Shown here: piece after piece, positions 1,344 through 34,436 of the stretch
Layout of the letters: the number at the start of each line of letters is the position of its first letter
Position numbering within the stretch: position 1 is the stretch's first letter
Notes under the pieces: generated by a model
What the model was told of the DNA's origin: nothing
Seen by the model: only the letters and a program-made list of their open reading frames with translations
The model's database searches: none
Program-made: the position numbers and the translations under genes
Source: a virus
Taxonomy: Duplodnaviria > Heunggongvirae > Uroviricota > Caudoviricetes
Reading direction: 5' to 3' (one strand)
IMG/VR virus record: IMGVR_UViG_2645727901_000003
Span: 1-38,370 of that record
DNA length: 38,370 nucleotides

Positions 1344-1734
1344 ATAGCTCTCCATACAGGCGGTAGCCTGGCAGAGCAGGACGCCCTTGAGCCGCGATGC
1401 GGCGAATAGGGAGTGGTAAAGTTGGAACACCGTAGCGGTGGGCCTACTTTACATGTCCTGCCCTCCTGTTGCCGTAGTATATCTGTGCACATCAATGTGT
1501 ATTTCAGTGTACAGGATGTGTTTTCTTAGCGTATTAATATAGGATTACTCGGGTAAAGATCTGCAGCAAATGTGTTTCTTGCAAGGAAACTATATTTCTC
1601 CCTTTTGAAAATGACCTTTAGTAGTTATAAATGGGCGTCCACCAACTGTATTTATGTTTCGATATATTGTAAGAAATATTTTATTTTCTCATGCACTTTT
1701 TTACTTACATTGTCAAAGCATGTGCATTGCAGAT

Positions 1735-29017: not shown

Positions 29018-29313
29018 AAATTGTCCTCTCTGGCCTCTGCGGCCATCTTCAGATACTGATCTGGGCAGTGCGTCATGACGCGCTGAAACATAACCAGAGC
29101 CAGGTTGCGCTGCCCTTCGTTGAATGCTGTGATGTGCGGATCTACGTTGAAGCAAGCTCCGAACACCTGACCTTTCTCAAGCAGTGACCAGATCACGCGT
29201 CGGCCCTGCTCGCTGCCCATAACGAACTGGATGTCGTCGATATCGCGCTGCGCCAGAAGTTGCTGTTTGGCGTCAATCTCTGCTTTTCGGCCTTCGTCAT
29301 CGATATCAGTCAT
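29014..29313 (-). CDS. Small phage protein (Bbp19-like?)
   Basis: 99 aa, coupled to portal gene. Confidence 0.3.
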   Translation of the reverse strand: MTDIDDEGRKAEIDAKQQLLAQRDIDDIQFVMGSEQGRRVIWSLLEKGQVFGACFNVDPHITAFNEGQRNLALVMFQRVMTHCPDQYLKMAAEAREDNL

Positions 29314-30980
29314 TGCTGCGGTGCTCCTGCTGCATTAGCGATAGCGGTTAATGCGCTCGGGTCAGTGGTCTGCGTTTCGCTGAGAGTCTTGGCTCCCTGT
29401 GCTGCGGCCTGCCCCATTGCCATTGCCTGTGCGGCTTGTGCCTGTTTGGCGCGCTCTTCACGAATACCCTGTACCTGCTCCTGCGGAACGATGACCGTTG
29501 GCGATACGCCGGACATTTCTGAGAACGCGTCGATAGCCTCATCCACGTCGAGCTTGTCGAGTGCTTCAGGTTTGAATTGTGCGAGTTGACCGATGAAGCC
29601 AACGGTCTGCGACAGACTGGTGAGGCCGATAGATTTCTGTGCCTGCGCCATCACGGATATGTATTCGATACGCAGCGGCATACCCTGCATAACGTCCGGC
29701 GGTGGAGGAAGCATGTTCTTGCGCGCCATGATGGAGAACACGCGGTCAATAAGCGGGTTAAGTGCTTCGTCGTTCAGGCGCTCCAGTACCGGACCGAGCA
29801 TCAGCAGTTTCTCTTCCTTCATCTCGATCACCGCTTCCACCGGCATAGAGCGGGTGTTGATGTTTTGCAGCATCATGAAGAGGTCGACGAAGTAGGCGCT
29901 GTTGATGGTCTGGCGGGTATCCTGAATGTCAGCGAGCAGATCTGCTGTATTCGGGTTTACCAGGTATGCAGGCTTGAAACCGTCCTGACCGCTCAACACA
30001 TCGAGGTACGTCACATCACCAGGCAGCAGGGAAACACGCTGTGTTTTTAGCGAGGTAGGTGCAACCATAGGCGGGTTAGTAGCTTTATCGATGAGTTGGG
30101 CTTTACGCTTCTGCTCAACCTGAAGCGCTTTGACCTGACCGAGAGCCAGCATGCCAGGGCAGGATGAGGCGTAAACGTCCTCGCCGTTAACTTCCCAGCG
30201 TGGAGCCAGGATCGGAAATTCATCGAAGCCAGATTCACGCAGCAGCTTGTCGGAGTCGCCGCCAGTCTCAAAGTACACGGAGCGGAACGGTTTGTTCTTG
30301 CTGTCCATCTTCCCGGTATCACGGTTAACGTTTGGAGTAATGCAGTGGTTAACCTCGATCCACGTTTCATACGTGCCGTTTTGCCACATCCCTTGCACCG
30401 ATGAGCTGACATTATCCAGACCGAATTCCTGCACAAGCTGGCGAACAGTCATGGAGAACTGACGGAAGGATGTGTCGACGCTGCCGCGCGGACTGTTAGC
30501 CAGGTAGTAGCTGCCAATGGGGAAAGGCATTGTGCGGATCACGTCCTGGTCATCTTCGAGCACAGCCATTGCAGCGGTACCGAAAGTTCCCAGGCTGGCG
30601 TACATGACAGGCAGTGACTGATACAGGTTAGACTTGTTGAACACTTCGTTCATACGGCGCTGCACGACTTCAAGCCACACCTTAACCGGTCCGTAATCCA
30701 TCATGTCAGGGTCAGGCGTTGCCAGTTTGAACCATGGGCGGGCCGGGCTGGTGATGCCGGACATCATGCCGCTGGACAGAATGCGCTGAGCCATTGAACC
30801 GGTAGGATCAACAATCTTGGTATTACGACGATCATCACGGTTTACATCAGACGTCAGAAAGCGGGAACCGCGCGGATTGATGAAGTCGCTCAGGTCACGC
30901 CAGTGTGACTCGAACGATGTGCGCTCATTCTTCAACTGTGCGAGTTGCTTCAGCAGACGCTCTTTTTCGGTTTCCGCCAT
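29310..30980 (-). CDS. Portal / head-to-tail connector protein (T7 gp8-like)
   Basis: 556 aa; C-terminal QAQAAQAMAMGQAAAQGAKT resembles recalled T7 connector C-terminus; follows terL. Confidence 0.65.
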   Translation of the reverse strand: MAETEKERLLKQLAQLKNERTSFESHWRDLSDFINPRGSRFLTSDVNRDDRRNTKIVDPTGSMAQRILSSGMMSGITSPARPWFKLATPDPDMMDYGPVKVWLEVVQRRMNEVFNKSNLYQSLPVMYASLGTFGTAAMAVLEDDQDVIRTMPFPIGSYYLANSPRGSVDTSFRQFSMTVRQLVQEFGLDNVSSSVQGMWQNGTYETWIEVNHCITPNVNRDTGKMDSKNKPFRSVYFETGGDSDKLLRESGFDEFPILAPRWEVNGEDVYASSCPGMLALGQVKALQVEQKRKAQLIDKATNPPMVAPTSLKTQRVSLLPGDVTYLDVLSGQDGFKPAYLVNPNTADLLADIQDTRQTINSAYFVDLFMMLQNINTRSMPVEAVIEMKEEKLLMLGPVLERLNDEALNPLIDRVFSIMARKNMLPPPPDVMQGMPLRIEYISVMAQAQKSIGLTSLSQTVGFIGQLAQFKPEALDKLDVDEAIDAFSEMSGVSPTVIVPQEQVQGIREERAKQAQAAQAMAMGQAAAQGAKTLSETQTTDPSALTAIANAAGAPQQ

Positions 30981-30994
30981 CTCTGCCTACTCCG

Positions 30995-31201
30995 TTACTG
31001 ACCGAGCAGCGTTTTACCGCTGGTGTTTGCGGTTGAGGTGTCGCCCTGCGCACCAGTCAGCAGAGTGGAACTGCGGCCAGCGGCTGCACGGCGGCGGCGC
31101 TCTTCGTCATCACGAGAACTGACAACTGCTGCATCCTGCTCCTGTGGCGCGGCCTGTACTTCTGGTGCTGCTGGCACTGATGGCTTGCTGCCGATACACA
31201 T
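30995..31201 (-). CDS. Small low-complexity protein upstream of portal
   Basis: 68 aa, ATG with GGAG Shine-Dalgarno; may be spurious. Confidence 0.3.
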   Translation of the reverse strand: MCIGSKPSVPAAPEVQAAPQEQDAAVVSSRDDEERRRRAAAGRSSTLLTGAQGDTSTANTSGKTLLGQ

Positions 31202-31290
31202 AGCAATAGCTCCGTACGCAATTAAATTATTACCAATTTAACCACATATGATTTATTTAGCGTAGGATATTGACACATATAACATCAGAT

Positions 31291-31307
31291 ATTACCTTTT
31301 AGGTAAT
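31291..31307. promoter_or_regulatory. 17-bp palindrome ATTACCT-TTT-AGGTAAT (candidate operator), copy 2
   Basis: Same half-sites as 12481..12497; overlaps the -35 region of an extended -10 element. Confidence 0.45.
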
Positions 31308-31313
31308 TGATGT

Positions 31314-31322
31314 TGATATAAC
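31314..31322 (+). promoter_or_regulatory. Candidate extended -10 promoter element (TGaTATAAC)
   Basis: TG-N-TATAAC; TTGACA hexamer at 31270..31275 lacks a properly spaced -10. Confidence 0.3.
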
Positions 31323-32006
31323 TCAGTGGTTGTACGGCATATGGCACATGTGCCGCAGCGGTCCGGATGGGTTCCCTTGATGCTACTTCCCCAGCCGGGT
31401 AGCCGGAATGTGCAAGCCAGTGTTAGGTAAGCACGGACAGACGACTCACCATCGTGGCGATACGGTGTGACACCTCGGAAGAGACGAGGATGCAACGATG
31501 AGAGCATTGCAGGTTTACATGGTGGACATGATTGCCACGGAGTACGAAGCAAAGTGCAGTGCTCTCAATGTTGTGGTTTTCCTGATGCTAGTTGGTTCGG
31601 TTGCGGCGGATACCAAGGCGACGAAGGAAATGCTGACGCACAGCACCACAGCAACGAAAGCCGCTAATCGGTTATGAGGATTCGCGCCTGACGGGTCGAA
31701 ATTTGCGGCATCAGGCACATAACAGGTAAGAGCATTGAACCCGTAGACCTCGCGGATTGGTGAAAGGTGCCGCGCAGTGCTCTTTCCGTTGTGGTGAATG
31801 GCGGGGCTGACCGTCAAACGGTTGAGAAAAGATAAGCAGGCGAAACGTTCTAAGCGAGCATATGGACTGATCGAACGCGGATGGAACGGGCGGTTACGAT
31901 ATTGAAACACCGCGCCACTGAGCTGGAGTTCAGCACCAGCCACCACAAACGAATCACGTTAGGACCGTGGTAAACCGTAGTGCCAATGTAATTGCTGTGT
32001 GACTTT

Positions 32007-32059
32007 GTCGGTGCCAGATTCATCCCGAGTTGCCCCTCGCTGGTACCGACACTTTTTTT
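32007..32059 (+). terminator. Intrinsic terminator-like hairpin
   Basis: GTCGGTGCCAG ... CTGGTACCGAC stem with one G-U wobble, then UUUUUUU. Confidence 0.45.
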
Positions 32060-32132
32060 ACAGCAGAACGCCATTGCGATGACGTTGCGCTGTAAACCCG
32101 TAACTGCCATGGAAGGCACCCTTACTTCCAGT

Positions 32133-32158
32133 TCGCCCACTTCGGTGGGCATTTTTTT
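32133..32158 (+). terminator. Intrinsic terminator directly upstream of ORF RBS
   Basis: GCCCAC-UUCG-GUGGGC then AUUUUUUU; AAGGTGAG Shine-Dalgarno and ATG at 32170 follow. Confidence 0.65.
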
Positions 32159-32169
32159 AAGGTGAGATT

Positions 32170-32601
32170 ATGAGCAAAGACCTGTTTGACATGAAGCGCC
32201 TTCCGGTTGACCGGGTTGCTGCGAGAGTTGTTGGTAAGGGCGTGGATTGGACACCAAACAAAGTTATCCAGACAGGAGACAGCGATCTGCCGTTGCCAGT
32301 GTTTTCTGTATATAACATTAAAAACCCGCAACAACGGCGAGAAGTGAAAGCAATGATCGGAAGAAAGCGCGGGAGATTGACAATAATTGGCCTTGCTGTC
32401 ACGCAAGGAGCAAAAAATAAAGGTGCTCGCTATGTTGCTCGTTGTGTTTGCGGGATTTATACGTATCGCCGAGCAAAAAATTTCAAGAATAATTCCGATG
32501 AGTTTGATGGCTGCGAACGATGCAGGGAGTTGCTGTTTTTGAAACGAGATGAGGTCCATCGCAGAACTGGAAAATGGGTAGAATGGAAAGATTTGATATA
32601 A
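32170..32601 (+). CDS. Zinc-ribbon protein of unknown function (antisense moron)
   Basis: 143 aa; strong Shine-Dalgarno; CVCG...CERC Cys pairs; basic. Confidence 0.55.
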   Translation: MSKDLFDMKRLPVDRVAARVVGKGVDWTPNKVIQTGDSDLPLPVFSVYNIKNPQQRREVKAMIGRKRGRLTIIGLAVTQGAKNKGARYVARCVCGIYTYRRAKNFKNNSDEFDGCERCRELLFLKRDEVHRRTGKWVEWKDLI

Positions 32602-32604
32602 CGC

Positions 32605-32618
32605 TGTGACATGTCACA
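32605..32618. repeat. Palindrome TGTGACATGTCACA (GTGACATGTCAC copy 2)
   Basis: 14-bp perfect palindrome just after the ORF stop and before the terminator. Confidence 0.6.
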
Positions 32619-32621
32619 TTC

Positions 32622-32646
32622 AGCCCGCCGATGCGCGGGCTTTTTT
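32622..32646 (+). terminator. Intrinsic terminator
   Basis: AGCCCGC-CGATGC-GCGGGCU then UUUUUU. Confidence 0.65.
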
Positions 32647-32688
32647 GTATGGCATAATCACTCATTCGATTATCACAGCGAGTGGACC

Positions 32689-32970
32689 ATGAAAATTAAA
32701 CAAAAAATTGTTAATACCTTTGTGAACTCAACCCATGAGTGGAACATGGCCATGCACAATGCCATTGAAAGAAAGGTATTTGAAGGATTTGAAAGCACAT
32801 TCCCTAATGGATTAAAAGACCCTGCTGAGACCGGTGAAAGAATAGAGTCAATGCGTGCATTCTATTATCAGCGCATGATGAATACCGCATCACTTTTGCT
32901 AACTGGTGCGTCACTAATCATTGCATTAGTTGCCTTGGTTGTAGCTCTGATATCAATTCACTATGCATAG
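32689..32970 (+). CDS. Tail-anchored small membrane protein (antisense moron)
   Basis: 93 aa from MKIKQ (ORF track begins at 32611); C-terminal TM helix LLLTGASLIIALVALVVALISI; 3' end overlaps terL stop convergently. Confidence 0.45.
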   Translation: MKIKQKIVNTFVNSTHEWNMAMHNAIERKVFEGFESTFPNGLKDPAETGERIESMRAFYYQRMMNTASLLLTGASLIIALVALVVALISIHYA

Positions 32971-34436
32971 GGGTCGTATTCTGTCAACGCCTTGCCCTGC
33001 TGGCTTTGCTGTCCTGGTATATTCATACGTTTCGACACCGGGAAAGCAAACGTCAGCAGCAGCGCATCACCCTTGCCAGGAGAACGGCCTAACCGCTCTT
33101 TGATATCTTCCTTCGGCTCAATAACTATCTTGCCGTCCACCCTGACTTTGTACTCAGCCGCCGACAGGTCGTCAGCCGTTTCCTGGTCATCCAGTGCGCC
33201 ACCAATTTTCAGCCACGTTTTGCAGCTGTTGAACATCTCGCCGCGCTTGTTGAGCATCTGCGGATCGGTAGAGCCGCCGCCGAAAGGTATCAGTTGCCAG
33301 GAACGGCCCCAGCCATCACCGATTGACTTCAGCCCGGTACCATACCCGAAGTCGATGAATACAGCGTCAGCCTGGTACTGGTCTTCAAAATCAGCGATAC
33401 GCTTTGCCATAATCAGATCATCGGTTGTCTTATTGCCGGTCCATAGCACTTTGCTGTGAAGCCCCTGGCGCAGGTATATCACCGCGTCATCCACACCGGA
33501 ATACGCCGGGTCAACACCGATAATCACCGGAGCGTGCGCCACCTGCCCGGCTGTCACCACGCGCTTCATTGCGGAATCAGTCAGGCCTGTCGGGATAAAC
33601 TGGAGTTCAGACGCATCAGGGAAGATCCCGCGTACACGAACTTTCACGAAGTCGCTATCCTCGCCGTAGTCATCAACCCACTTCTGCAACTGCTGCTTGT
33701 TGGTGCCTTCCACGGTGCGGCTGTCTATCTGCGCGCACTTCCAGCGGTGTTTGTATTTGCGGAAGCATTCACGGAAACGCCCGGTGTTACGCGTAGGGTT
33801 CCCGAACGCCACCCAGATGATTTCGGTGTCTTCGTCCGTCAGCGCACCCTCGGCAACTTCCCACACCAGATCGGCAATGTTGGACGCTTCATCGAATACA
33901 ACGATGATGCGCTTGCGTTCGTTGTGCAGACCGGCGAACGCCTCGGTGTTGTGTTCAGACCATGGAATAGCATCAGCGCGCCAGCGTTTGTCGTGACCGG
34001 GATCGTTGCTGTACATCGCGGTGGCGGTGCAGGTGAACCACTCTTTCGTGATAGCCAGGTTCGACCATTTGATGATTTCAGGCCATGTTTTGGTGCGCAG
34101 CTGGTTGTCGGTGTTGGCGGTCACCACCACCTTGCAGTCTTCACAGGTAGACATGCCCCAGTTGATGAGCATCGAGATGAACGCAGATTTACCGATACCG
34201 TGGCCGGATGCGCGGGCCAACATCAGCGGCTGGTGACGCGTTGCTGGATTCTGCAGGTGATCGCGTATCTCGCGGAATGCGTCTGCCTGCCATTTTCGCG
34301 GGCCGGTGGCATGCGCCAGTTCTGTCCCCTCTTCGCCCCACGGAAACGCATACAGCGAATAGCCCAGCGGGTCATATGTGAACGATGCAATATCCTCGAC
34401 AAGCTGCTCTTCCGGCGACATGGCTGCGGCTGTCAT
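32961..34436 (-). CDS. terL: Terminase large subunit
   Basis: 491 aa; Walker A-like GHGIGKS; ATGA overlap with terS stop. Confidence 0.75.
   Translation of the reverse strand: MTAAAMSPEEQLVEDIASFTYDPLGYSLYAFPWGEEGTELAHATGPRKWQADAFREIRDHLQNPATRHQPLMLARASGHGIGKSAFISMLINWGMSTCEDCKVVVTANTDNQLRTKTWPEIIKWSNLAITKEWFTCTATAMYSNDPGHDKRWRADAIPWSEHNTEAFAGLHNERKRIIVVFDEASNIADLVWEVAEGALTDEDTEIIWVAFGNPTRNTGRFRECFRKYKHRWKCAQIDSRTVEGTNKQQLQKWVDDYGEDSDFVKVRVRGIFPDASELQFIPTGLTDSAMKRVVTAGQVAHAPVIIGVDPAYSGVDDAVIYLRQGLHSKVLWTGNKTTDDLIMAKRIADFEDQYQADAVFIDFGYGTGLKSIGDGWGRSWQLIPFGGGSTDPQMLNKRGEMFNSCKTWLKIGGALDDQETADDLSAAEYKVRVDGKIVIEPKEDIKERLGRSPGKGDALLLTFAFPVSKRMNIPGQQSQQGKALTEYDPYA

Follow-up and report, generated by a model that had tools for sequence, protein, structure and literature searches.

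The C4 RNA of phages P1 and P7 is matured by RNase P, and the tRNA cluster of phage T4 co-produces stable RNAs that are not tRNAs. Other prophage RNAs, namely AgvB, AsxR and the Pas small RNAs (sRNAs), are encoded at "moron" sites of lambdoid phages downstream of PR′ (PMC4104026; bioRxiv 10.64898/2026.05.13.724894), and Daniels et al. (1988) are reported to place RNase III processing sites in the late RNA of phage λ. The region considered here, positions 31261-32169, lies in a 38,370-nucleotide (nt) stretch of viral DNA (IMG/VR record IMGVR_UViG_2645727901_000003; "the window" below means this whole stretch) that represents an epsilon15-like (Uetakevirus) phage or prophage. It resembles the P1/P7 C4 and T4 RNAs in concept, as phage small RNAs that would be cut by the tRNA-processing machinery and that are co-located with tRNAs, but it matches them in neither sequence nor structure. 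With AgvB, AsxR and Pas it shares a similar kind of genomic site and the design of a constant scaffold joined to a variable region; however, AgvB and AsxR are Hfq-binding sRNAs of 51-60 nt that have their own terminators and run convergent to PR′, and the Pas sRNAs likewise bind Hfq and have their own terminators. Identity with AgvB/AsxR or with Pas/STnc100 was considered and rejected, since size and design differ and the Rfam AgvB, AsxR and STnc100 models miss both the window and ten related loci (λ, HK629, CUS-3, P1, a Shiga toxin (Stx) 2 phage and five others).

An initial annotation of this DNA had offered the region as a candidate large structured noncoding RNA (ncRNA) or attenuator leader, devoid of any convincing open reading frame (ORF). 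We think it rather probable, if far from secure, that the ~0.85-kb region is a plus-strand operon of noncoding RNA cassettes that occupies a moron slot and is matured by RNase III and RNase P. The predicted order is a structured leader, hairpin E1 with the RNA unit cargo 1, hairpin E2 with cargo 2, terminators T1 and T2, and finally an ORF of 143 amino acids (aa). The region is noncoding, and selection acts on the RNA structure of its plus strand in four or more types of module. Covariation, which the annotation had proposed to seek in homologous loci, is present (8 compensatory pairs in the leader, 5 in cargo 2 and 11 of 21 in the scaffold family to which cargo 2 belongs); conserved G·U wobbles place all of the structures on the plus strand, and helices kept by compensatory changes, together with G·U pairs that can form on that strand only, argue for selection at the RNA level. 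The annotated picture of a region that is structured as plus-strand RNA, ends at intrinsic terminators and probably starts at an operator and promoter therefore stands, but the single large ncRNA gives way to separately conserved modules that recombine independently. At ≥80% coverage the whole region is present in no phage record and in no complete E. coli genome, and phages that are otherwise unrelated share individual pieces of it at 84-97% identity, so it is treated here as a chain of modules. Comparison of the loci indicates that these modules are mobile, recombine independently of one another and are conserved separately in many phages.

The leader, the hairpins and the scaffold appear to be modules that no RNA database describes, and they are also found in λ, P1 and Shiga toxin phages. 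Rfam 15 was searched with the whole window at the gathering threshold and with the region and two slices of it (176 and 396 nt) at E ≤ 10, and at neither setting did the leader, hairpins or cargos of the window give a match; the ten related loci gave only tRNA and sok. The literature searched, whose coverage is incomplete so that an earlier description may exist, describes none of these modules. The absence of a credible gene from 31261-32169 was borne out. Mechanical ORFs are present on the minus strand (143 aa, 31515-31946; 100 aa, 31850-32152; and 86 aa) and the plus strand (59-66 aa), but six internal ORFs have no Pfam match, and the sole PHROG match links the N-terminal 40 aa encoded by the 100-aa ORF, over the conserved block that contains T2, to a family whose function is unknown. 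Homologues of 31789-31948 have stops in all plus frames and vary in length by 2 nt, and a 35-aa plus-strand ORF is interrupted by TAA or TAG in several relatives. The analysis thus finds no conserved open frame with a protein family, and the decayed protein gene that the annotation had allowed for does not fit.

The structural genes, among them those for the portal (29310-30980) and the large terminase (32961-34436), are on the minus strand, and the region sits between the minus-strand homologue of gp3 (68 aa, 30995-31201) and the plus-strand 143-aa ORF (32170-32601; PHROG 18493, function unknown), whose ATG is at 32170. This gp3/portal-to-terminase slot differs among the epsilon15-like relatives. 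In phage SPN9TCW and the E. coli SEC470 prophage it is occupied by a tRNA-Arg(UCU) gene; positions 31201-31576 and 31951-32169 are common to these two and the window, and their 77-nt tRNA-Arg is replaced in the window by 374 nt (31577-31950) that hold cargo 1, a spacer, E2 and cargo 2. The SPN1S-like phages (SPN1S, SPN9TCW and SPC32H) and SEC470 otherwise share with the window the slot, the operator, the leader (96-98% identical), a hairpin of the same type abutting the 5′ end of the RNA, the trailer (31949-32006, plus strand) and T2. In SEC470 and SPN9TCW the trailer stands behind tRNA-Arg and a homologue of E1 is joined directly to the 5′ end of that tRNA; in other phages the trailer comes after cargo 2. 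In SEC470, SPN9TCW and two further loci (L050 and L086) the 3′ arm of the hairpin meets the first base of the tRNA. The alignments indicate that the cargo position is equivalent to the tRNA position of the sister phages.

The slot of epsilon15 itself is ~490 bp long, with an annotated repressor site, integration host factor (IHF) site, RNase III site and terminator. Epsilon15 lacks 31385-32044, and its similarity to the window picks up again at 32045-32056; the deletion joins two copies of a short repeat, and epsilon15 looks like a deletion derivative that has lost the whole cassette. At the junction (epsilon15 2814-2896, compared with window 31332-31384 and 32045-32165) the sequence passes from the leader's GGGTTCCCTTGATGCT straight into the loop of a T1-type terminator, whose sequence resembles GGGTTCCCTTGATGCT. 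The feature annotated "RNaseIII" in epsilon15 is on the opposite strand and lies mostly inside a 205-bp insert specific to that phage.

Cargo 2 (31789-31948, plus strand) is a 160-nt tRNA-shaped scaffold RNA known from 38 loci and supported by covariation. Its fold has a closing stem P1 (UUGUGGU/ACCACAA), a 5′ hairpin P2 with the loop GGCUGA, a central domain of ~100 nt, and a 3′ hairpin P7 whose loop AGUUCAGCA kisses the P2 loop (CUGA/UCAG). The ~100-nt payload is conserved with 95% mean column identity across the 38 loci (27 of them unique), whose flanks are unrelated and which differ in their upstream hairpin interiors and downstream terminators. All four bases occur at 31863, yet 107 of 163 columns are invariant. 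A seven-helix model is paired in 98.4% of cells and contains five compensatory pairs, compared with 0.4 in shuffled alignments and 0-1 in slid controls. Among species-representative genomes one, that of Superficieibacter electus, carries cargo 2; a second, degenerate search pattern was too strict and added three loci only. At 31847-31855 cargo 2 has a 9-mer, TTCTAAGCG, that also occurs in the anticodon region (loop and stem) of the tRNA-Arg(UCU) found in this slot in sister phages (L007), and that may be either a vestige of descent from tRNA-Arg or a chance match (roughly 5%).

The family of units that follows the hairpins has the form UUGUGGUGAAUGCGCAGGCUGAUGCGC-[44-166 nt middle]-AAGCCGGAGAUCAGCACCGGCCACCACAA, and such units are more frequent at that place than tRNA-Arg; the 28 middles fall into at least 21 unrelated families. 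When chimeric constructs of the constant ends only (P1, P2, P7 and the four-pair loop-loop helix CUGA/UCAG) were examined, 97.1% of positions in the helices were paired and 11 of 21 pairs showed compensatory change, where shuffles gave 4.3 ± 1.4 and slid controls no more than 3. The kissing helix alone accounts for two compensatory pairs (UCGA/UCGA in L025 and AUGA/UCAU in L003). As in tRNA and the tRNA-like domain of tmRNA, a 7-bp closing stem stands beside a 5-bp 3′ hairpin and a GG-containing 5′ loop contacts the 3′ loop in an elbow-like manner, and the cargo lies where relatives have a tRNA; unlike in tRNA and tmRNA, there is no anticodon arm and the loops are joined by four Watson-Crick pairs, not by a T-loop motif. 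Cargo 2 in the window encodes no CCA, and ARAGORN and the Rfam models for tRNA and tmRNA all fail to detect it. Indeed, ARAGORN finds no tRNA gene in the window, RF00005 (tRNA) has no match in the region at E ≤ 10 though it detects the true tRNAs of the related loci, and for a tmRNA (tRNA-like domain plus tag frame) ARAGORN and Rfam are both negative.

Cargo 1 (31571-31650, plus strand), ~80 nt in length, is closed by UUGUGGU/(C)ACCACA and has a 3′ hairpin (GCUG-ACGCA-CAGC) adjoining the closing stem. It has three homologues in all, and homology ends exactly after CACCACA (94% identity in L084 and 81% in L011); its predicted fold is that of a small or degenerate unit with the same kind of closing stem as cargo 2. 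The spacer that follows it (31651-31715, plus strand) is confined to the window, with no homologue among ~170 loci, and contains a local hairpin GCCUGA...UCAGGC.

The cargos are each preceded by a long hairpin. E1 (31492-31574, plus strand) has a stem of ~20 bp, GCAACG-A-UGAGAGCAUUGCA / UGCAGUGCUCUCA-A-UGUUGU, around a 47-nt interior that is also present in five other loci (L010, L081, L084, L095 and L096), and folds at -37.8 kcal/mol (z = -4.4). E2 (31716-31793, plus strand), recognized by pattern match, fold, λ homology and covariation of the family stem, has the stem CAUAACAGG-U-AAGAGCAUUG ... CAGUGCUCUU-U-CCGUUGUG. The pattern GAGCAYTG-N(30-60)-CAGTGCTC matches the window twice, at E1 and E2, and not once in 100 shuffles. 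E2 is homologous to λ 44787-44868, directly after tR′; the two are 68% identical overall, with the arms AAGAGCAUUG/CAGUGCUCUU and flanks ACAACAGG/CCGUUGUG identical, and they share the long-stem architecture and the U·G wobble, while in λ too an RNA with a compensatory closing stem (UGUGCUG/CAGCACA) follows. The window differs from λ in that its hairpins lie outside the late leader, in a unit antisense to the late genes, occur twice and have another interior. By this homology and its interrupted stem of ~20 bp, E2 is a candidate RNase III hairpin of the λ late-leader kind. Many E. coli prophages, as well as HK629 and CUS-3, have a copy of E2 with ~94% identity in the interval from Q to the holin gene, and phage ep3 has an intergenic copy.

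A scan of viral contigs found the hairpin family in more than 120 contigs among the matches listed. Its consensus is cACAACAGGUAAGAGCAUUG-[35-60 nt]-CAGUGCUCUUUCCGUUGUGG, with constant stems around more than 25 unrelated kinds of interior. The stems covary among members (AAAGCGCAUUC/GGAGUGCGCUU, GAUGGCUUUCU/GAGAGAGUCAUC and AAGGGCGUUUG/GUGAGCGCCCU), with at least six compensatory variants, and 51 of 62 unique upstream regions form closed long hairpins. The U·G wobble, which on the other strand would be a C·A mismatch, is kept in 101 of 125 unique copies. In other phages the hairpins also form arrays of two or three, ~190-260 nt apart. Some interiors hold canonical-looking T-arm pieces such as CUGGUUCGAUUCCAG and UUCGUUCGAUUCGAA (L002 at ~2811-2910, L133, and L169 at ~1610-1700), which suggests that tRNA fragments may be among the variable inserts. 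At 31775-31790, and likewise in every canonical hairpin, the 3′ arm includes UGCUCUUU, which matches the rrn/nut boxA core exactly; a role as rrn boxA was rejected because covarying stem variants lack the motif, and the resemblance is probably coincidental.

The 165-nt structured 5′ leader (31326-31491, plus strand) is found in 39 loci with unrelated upstream flanks and in 94 phage records. It consists of stem S1 (31335-31355), a stem that encloses a variable hairpin, the invariant GGUAGCCGGAAUGUGCAAGCC, a hairpin with a UCACCA loop and an CCUCGGAAGAGACGAGG hairpin; the 31 pairs of its consensus fold include 8 that show compensatory changes, and G·U pairs are numerous. A covariance model of the leader (R1) finds one copy in the window, at 179.8 bits, and members outside its seed that include those of P1 (117 bits) and an Stx2 phage (128 bits), with others elsewhere. 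The P1 copy (70696-70890) is complete and lies between the tRNA-Ile gene (trnI) and the ban helicase gene, and that of the Stx2 phage lies downstream of cI, in the position of the pL leader, and is followed by hairpin and scaffold. The first pL ORF of the Stx2 phage belongs to no Pfam family, which is uninformative as to an N-type antitermination context. The put element was defined in phage HK022, whose immunity/early region gives no significant match to the leader, and a put-like antiterminator by homology was accordingly rejected.

Just upstream of the leader is an imperfect palindromic operator (31278-31320; arms 31278-31297 and 31301-31320), conserved in four of four epsilon15-like sequences in the alignment; its 17-bp core ATTACCTTTTAGGTAAT is at 31291-31307, and in epsilon15 the site is annotated "repressor" and "IHF". 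The extended -10 element TGATATAAC (31314-31322, plus strand), a candidate promoter of the RNA operon, is where the initial annotation had put it, though it overlaps only the outer arm of the larger palindrome and not the 17-bp core as had been claimed. A transcript would be expected to start near 31329-31332, and the sequence common to otherwise unrelated loci begins at ~31332-31335, ~10 nt past the -10; transcription probably starts at this operator-overlapped element, near 31330. The two local hairpins that the annotation had listed are also present: the palindrome GGCACATGTGCC (31343-31354) is the tip of the covarying leader stem S1, and the GCCTGA/TCAGGC hairpin is at 31686-31716.

Both intrinsic terminators annotated on the plus strand are genuine, one from the fold and its U-run and the other from the terminator scan. 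T1 (32007-32059) has an 11-bp stem (32007-32017/32040-32050) with one G·U pair, as had been noted, a branched loop and a run of seven U (32053-32059), and it folds at -24.1 kcal/mol (z = -4.3). It is identical in one other locus (L135), and elsewhere among the cargo-2 loci a different terminator takes its place. T2 (32131-32158; hairpin 32131-32150) is GCCCAC-UUCG-GUGGGC followed by a U-run. The 12-nt gap that had been described between T2 and the Shine-Dalgarno (SD) sequence does not exist, as the U-run ends at 32158 and directly abuts the SD AAGGTGAG, with the ATG (32170) ~11 nt further on. All four epsilon15-type relatives conserve T2 and the SD. T1 travels with the cassette and is part of the insertion, and T2 goes with the surrounding genes, remaining in epsilon15 despite the absent cassette, and belongs to the epsilon15-type backbone.

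The main rival to an operon of trans-acting RNA cassettes is a role in cis, in the processing, stability or antitermination of the downstream genes. The region would then be a leader or attenuator of the 143-aa ORF, through control of read-through at T1 and T2, through processing or stabilization of the mRNA (for example an RNase III cut that leaves a structured 5′ end) or as a put-like antiterminator. We hold this to be unlikely, though it deserves serious attention: in front of the ORF, T2 adjoins the SD and is kept by all epsilon15-like relatives, which leaves read-through as the only way for transcription to reach the ORF; the leader stands at the 5′ ends of operons elsewhere, upstream of P1 ban and in the pL-leader position of Stx2 phages; and the λ hairpin is located in the leader of the late mRNA. 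However, the riboswitch or attenuator that the initial annotation had envisaged was not recognized, as the region matches no riboswitch class or other family in Rfam and no aptamer with an expression platform was seen, with the reservation that alternative terminator/antiterminator pairings were not searched systematically; HK022, as noted, has no similar sequence. Epsilon15 retains T2 and the ORF with nearly the whole cassette gone, so the cassette is dispensable for the ORF, and the same modules stand upstream of unrelated genes or tRNAs, with T1 moving with the cassette and not with the ORF. A cis-acting leader also leaves unexplained why the payloads are hypervariable and yet individually conserved.

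That the region is a decayed tRNA gene cluster, in which the cargos are pseudo-tRNAs and the remainder functionless flanking leftovers, seems improbable. It would account for the tRNA-Arg that sister phages carry at exactly this position, for the T-arm-like pieces in some hairpin interiors, for the truncated look of cargo 1 and for the 9-mer that cargo 2 has in common with the anticodon region of tRNA-Arg. Decay would erase compensatory helices, however, and cargo 2 and the scaffold ends are nearly invariant over dozens of phages with four helices compensatory, including the loop-loop helix; the leader and the hairpins show the same purifying pattern.

Equally hard to credit is the idea that the conserved pieces act as DNA, as linkers or "boundary" sequences at which phage modules are exchanged by homologous recombination, with the hairpins as incidental palindromes. 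Linker-mediated exchange does predict constant arms around swapped interiors, the annotators of CUS-3 marked "boundary sequences" beside its copy of the hairpin, and the deletion in epsilon15 joins two short-repeat copies. Against it, the G·U pairs are conserved although the opposite strand would have A·C mismatches in their place, compensatory double changes and covarying kissing loops are signals at the RNA level, and the orientation, where known, is always sense with respect to the surrounding operon. The linker and RNA ideas are nevertheless compatible, as selected RNA elements can double as crossover points.

Most remote are a single large structured ncRNA of the GOLLD or ROOL kind, which the ~730-nt length, phage location and tRNA association recall but for which there is no Rfam match and, the modules being separate and differently combined, no single global fold, and small proteins (from the 59-aa plus-strand ORF or the 143-aa minus-strand ORF), for which a hydrophobic stretch in the 59-aa ORF (ATG at 31498), an SD-like GAGGA 7 nt upstream of it and a minus frame 0 open in 20 of 23 cargo-2 copies speak, whereas that ATG is within the conserved hairpin stem, its frame runs into the tRNA in tRNA-bearing relatives, and the ORFs have no protein family and meet stops and 2-nt length differences in divergent copies.

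Several observations weigh against the cassette operon and temper our preference for it. Evidence for the promoter is weak, as the -10 hexamer is poorer in relatives (TGATGTAAC and TGATGTGAC) and a scan for consensus two-hexamer promoters found none. Directly upstream of ban, the P1 leader is followed by neither hairpin nor scaffold, so the leader may act in cis in a role of its own. The RNase III sites of the λ late RNA may lie elsewhere than in this hairpin, and the GUUGUG of the hairpin 3′ arm overlaps the 5′ strand of the closing stem that follows, so hairpin and closing stem are mutually exclusive unless processing intervenes. The inner helices P4-P6 of cargo 2 lack covariation support, and most of its copies are ~95% identical, so that conservation may partly reflect recent spread. 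Finally, "tRNA-shaped" is to be understood as topology and loop-loop pairing only, since ARAGORN and the Rfam tRNA model miss the cargos.

If the cassette operon is nonetheless taken as the working interpretation, the ~20-bp hairpins would be RNase III processing sites, by analogy with the homologous hairpin of the λ late RNA, with cuts predicted within the stems GAGCAUUG/CAGUGCUC. The acceptor-like closing stems would be matured in the style of tRNA precursors, with RNase P forming the 5′ end and trimming the 3′ end. One may speculate from the overlap of hairpin 3′ arm and closing stem that the pathway is ordered, cleavage of the hairpin freeing the GUUGUG that then closes the scaffold. The stable RNAs so released might be trans-acting, their variable central domains serving to regulate by base pairing or as decoys in conflicts of the phage with its host or with other phages, and T1 and T2 would hold most transcription back from the downstream ORF.

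A wider proposal is offered more tentatively, and we regard it as possible but doubtful. Enterobacterial temperate phages may carry an undescribed mobile RNA display system, in which a tRNA-shaped scaffold displays swappable payloads (44-166 nt long and of at least 21 unrelated kinds). An RNase III-type hairpin with a hypervariable interior would stand before each scaffold, and the 165-nt leader would often head the array. Its units would be cut by host tRNA and rRNA processing enzymes from operon leaders (λ PR′, Stx-phage pL, P1 ban and the epsilon15-type slot) and would serve as trans-acting regulators, sponges or decoys in such conflicts.

A few further features of the window and of related records deserve mention. 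Modules 79-97% identical to those of the window are present in phages "15G"/"Pseudomonas phage 15b" (L003), in ep3 (L004), in Acinetobacter phage AB4P2 and in Stenotrophomonas phages BUCT708/709; for those labelled with non-enterobacterial hosts, either the modules have spread horizontally very recently or the records are mislabelled or contaminated. Elsewhere in the window, an isrK RNA (12916-12990, plus strand; Rfam, 76 bits) is directly followed by a C4 antisense RNA (13015-13100, plus strand; 77 bits), a pair that constitutes an RNA immunity module of the P1/P7 immI or Gifsy type, here in an epsilon15-like phage. The traJ-II RNA is a cis-regulatory element of the traJ leaders of conjugative plasmids; a full-length match to it at 1365-1463 (minus strand, 83.5 bits) is unexpected in a phage genome. 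Beyond the 143-aa ORF lies a plus-strand ORF of 119 aa (32611-32970), convergent with the terminase gene, with a hydrophobic C-terminal segment and a sub-threshold match to the Hol_Tox family of holin-like toxins (E = 0.004); a plus-strand terminator (32622-32641) falls within its 5′ end.

If the modules are indeed processed RNAs, long-ignored parts of textbook phage genomes (the untranslated λ late leader after tR′, the P1 trnI-ban interval and the pL leader of Stx phages) would join a large family of structured RNAs that recombine and whose payloads can be exchanged. This would explain the tolerance of moron sites to insertion and would give genome annotation three new RNA families, the leader, the hairpin and the scaffold. 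The scaffold would then be a natural counterpart of the engineered tRNA scaffold used for RNA expression.

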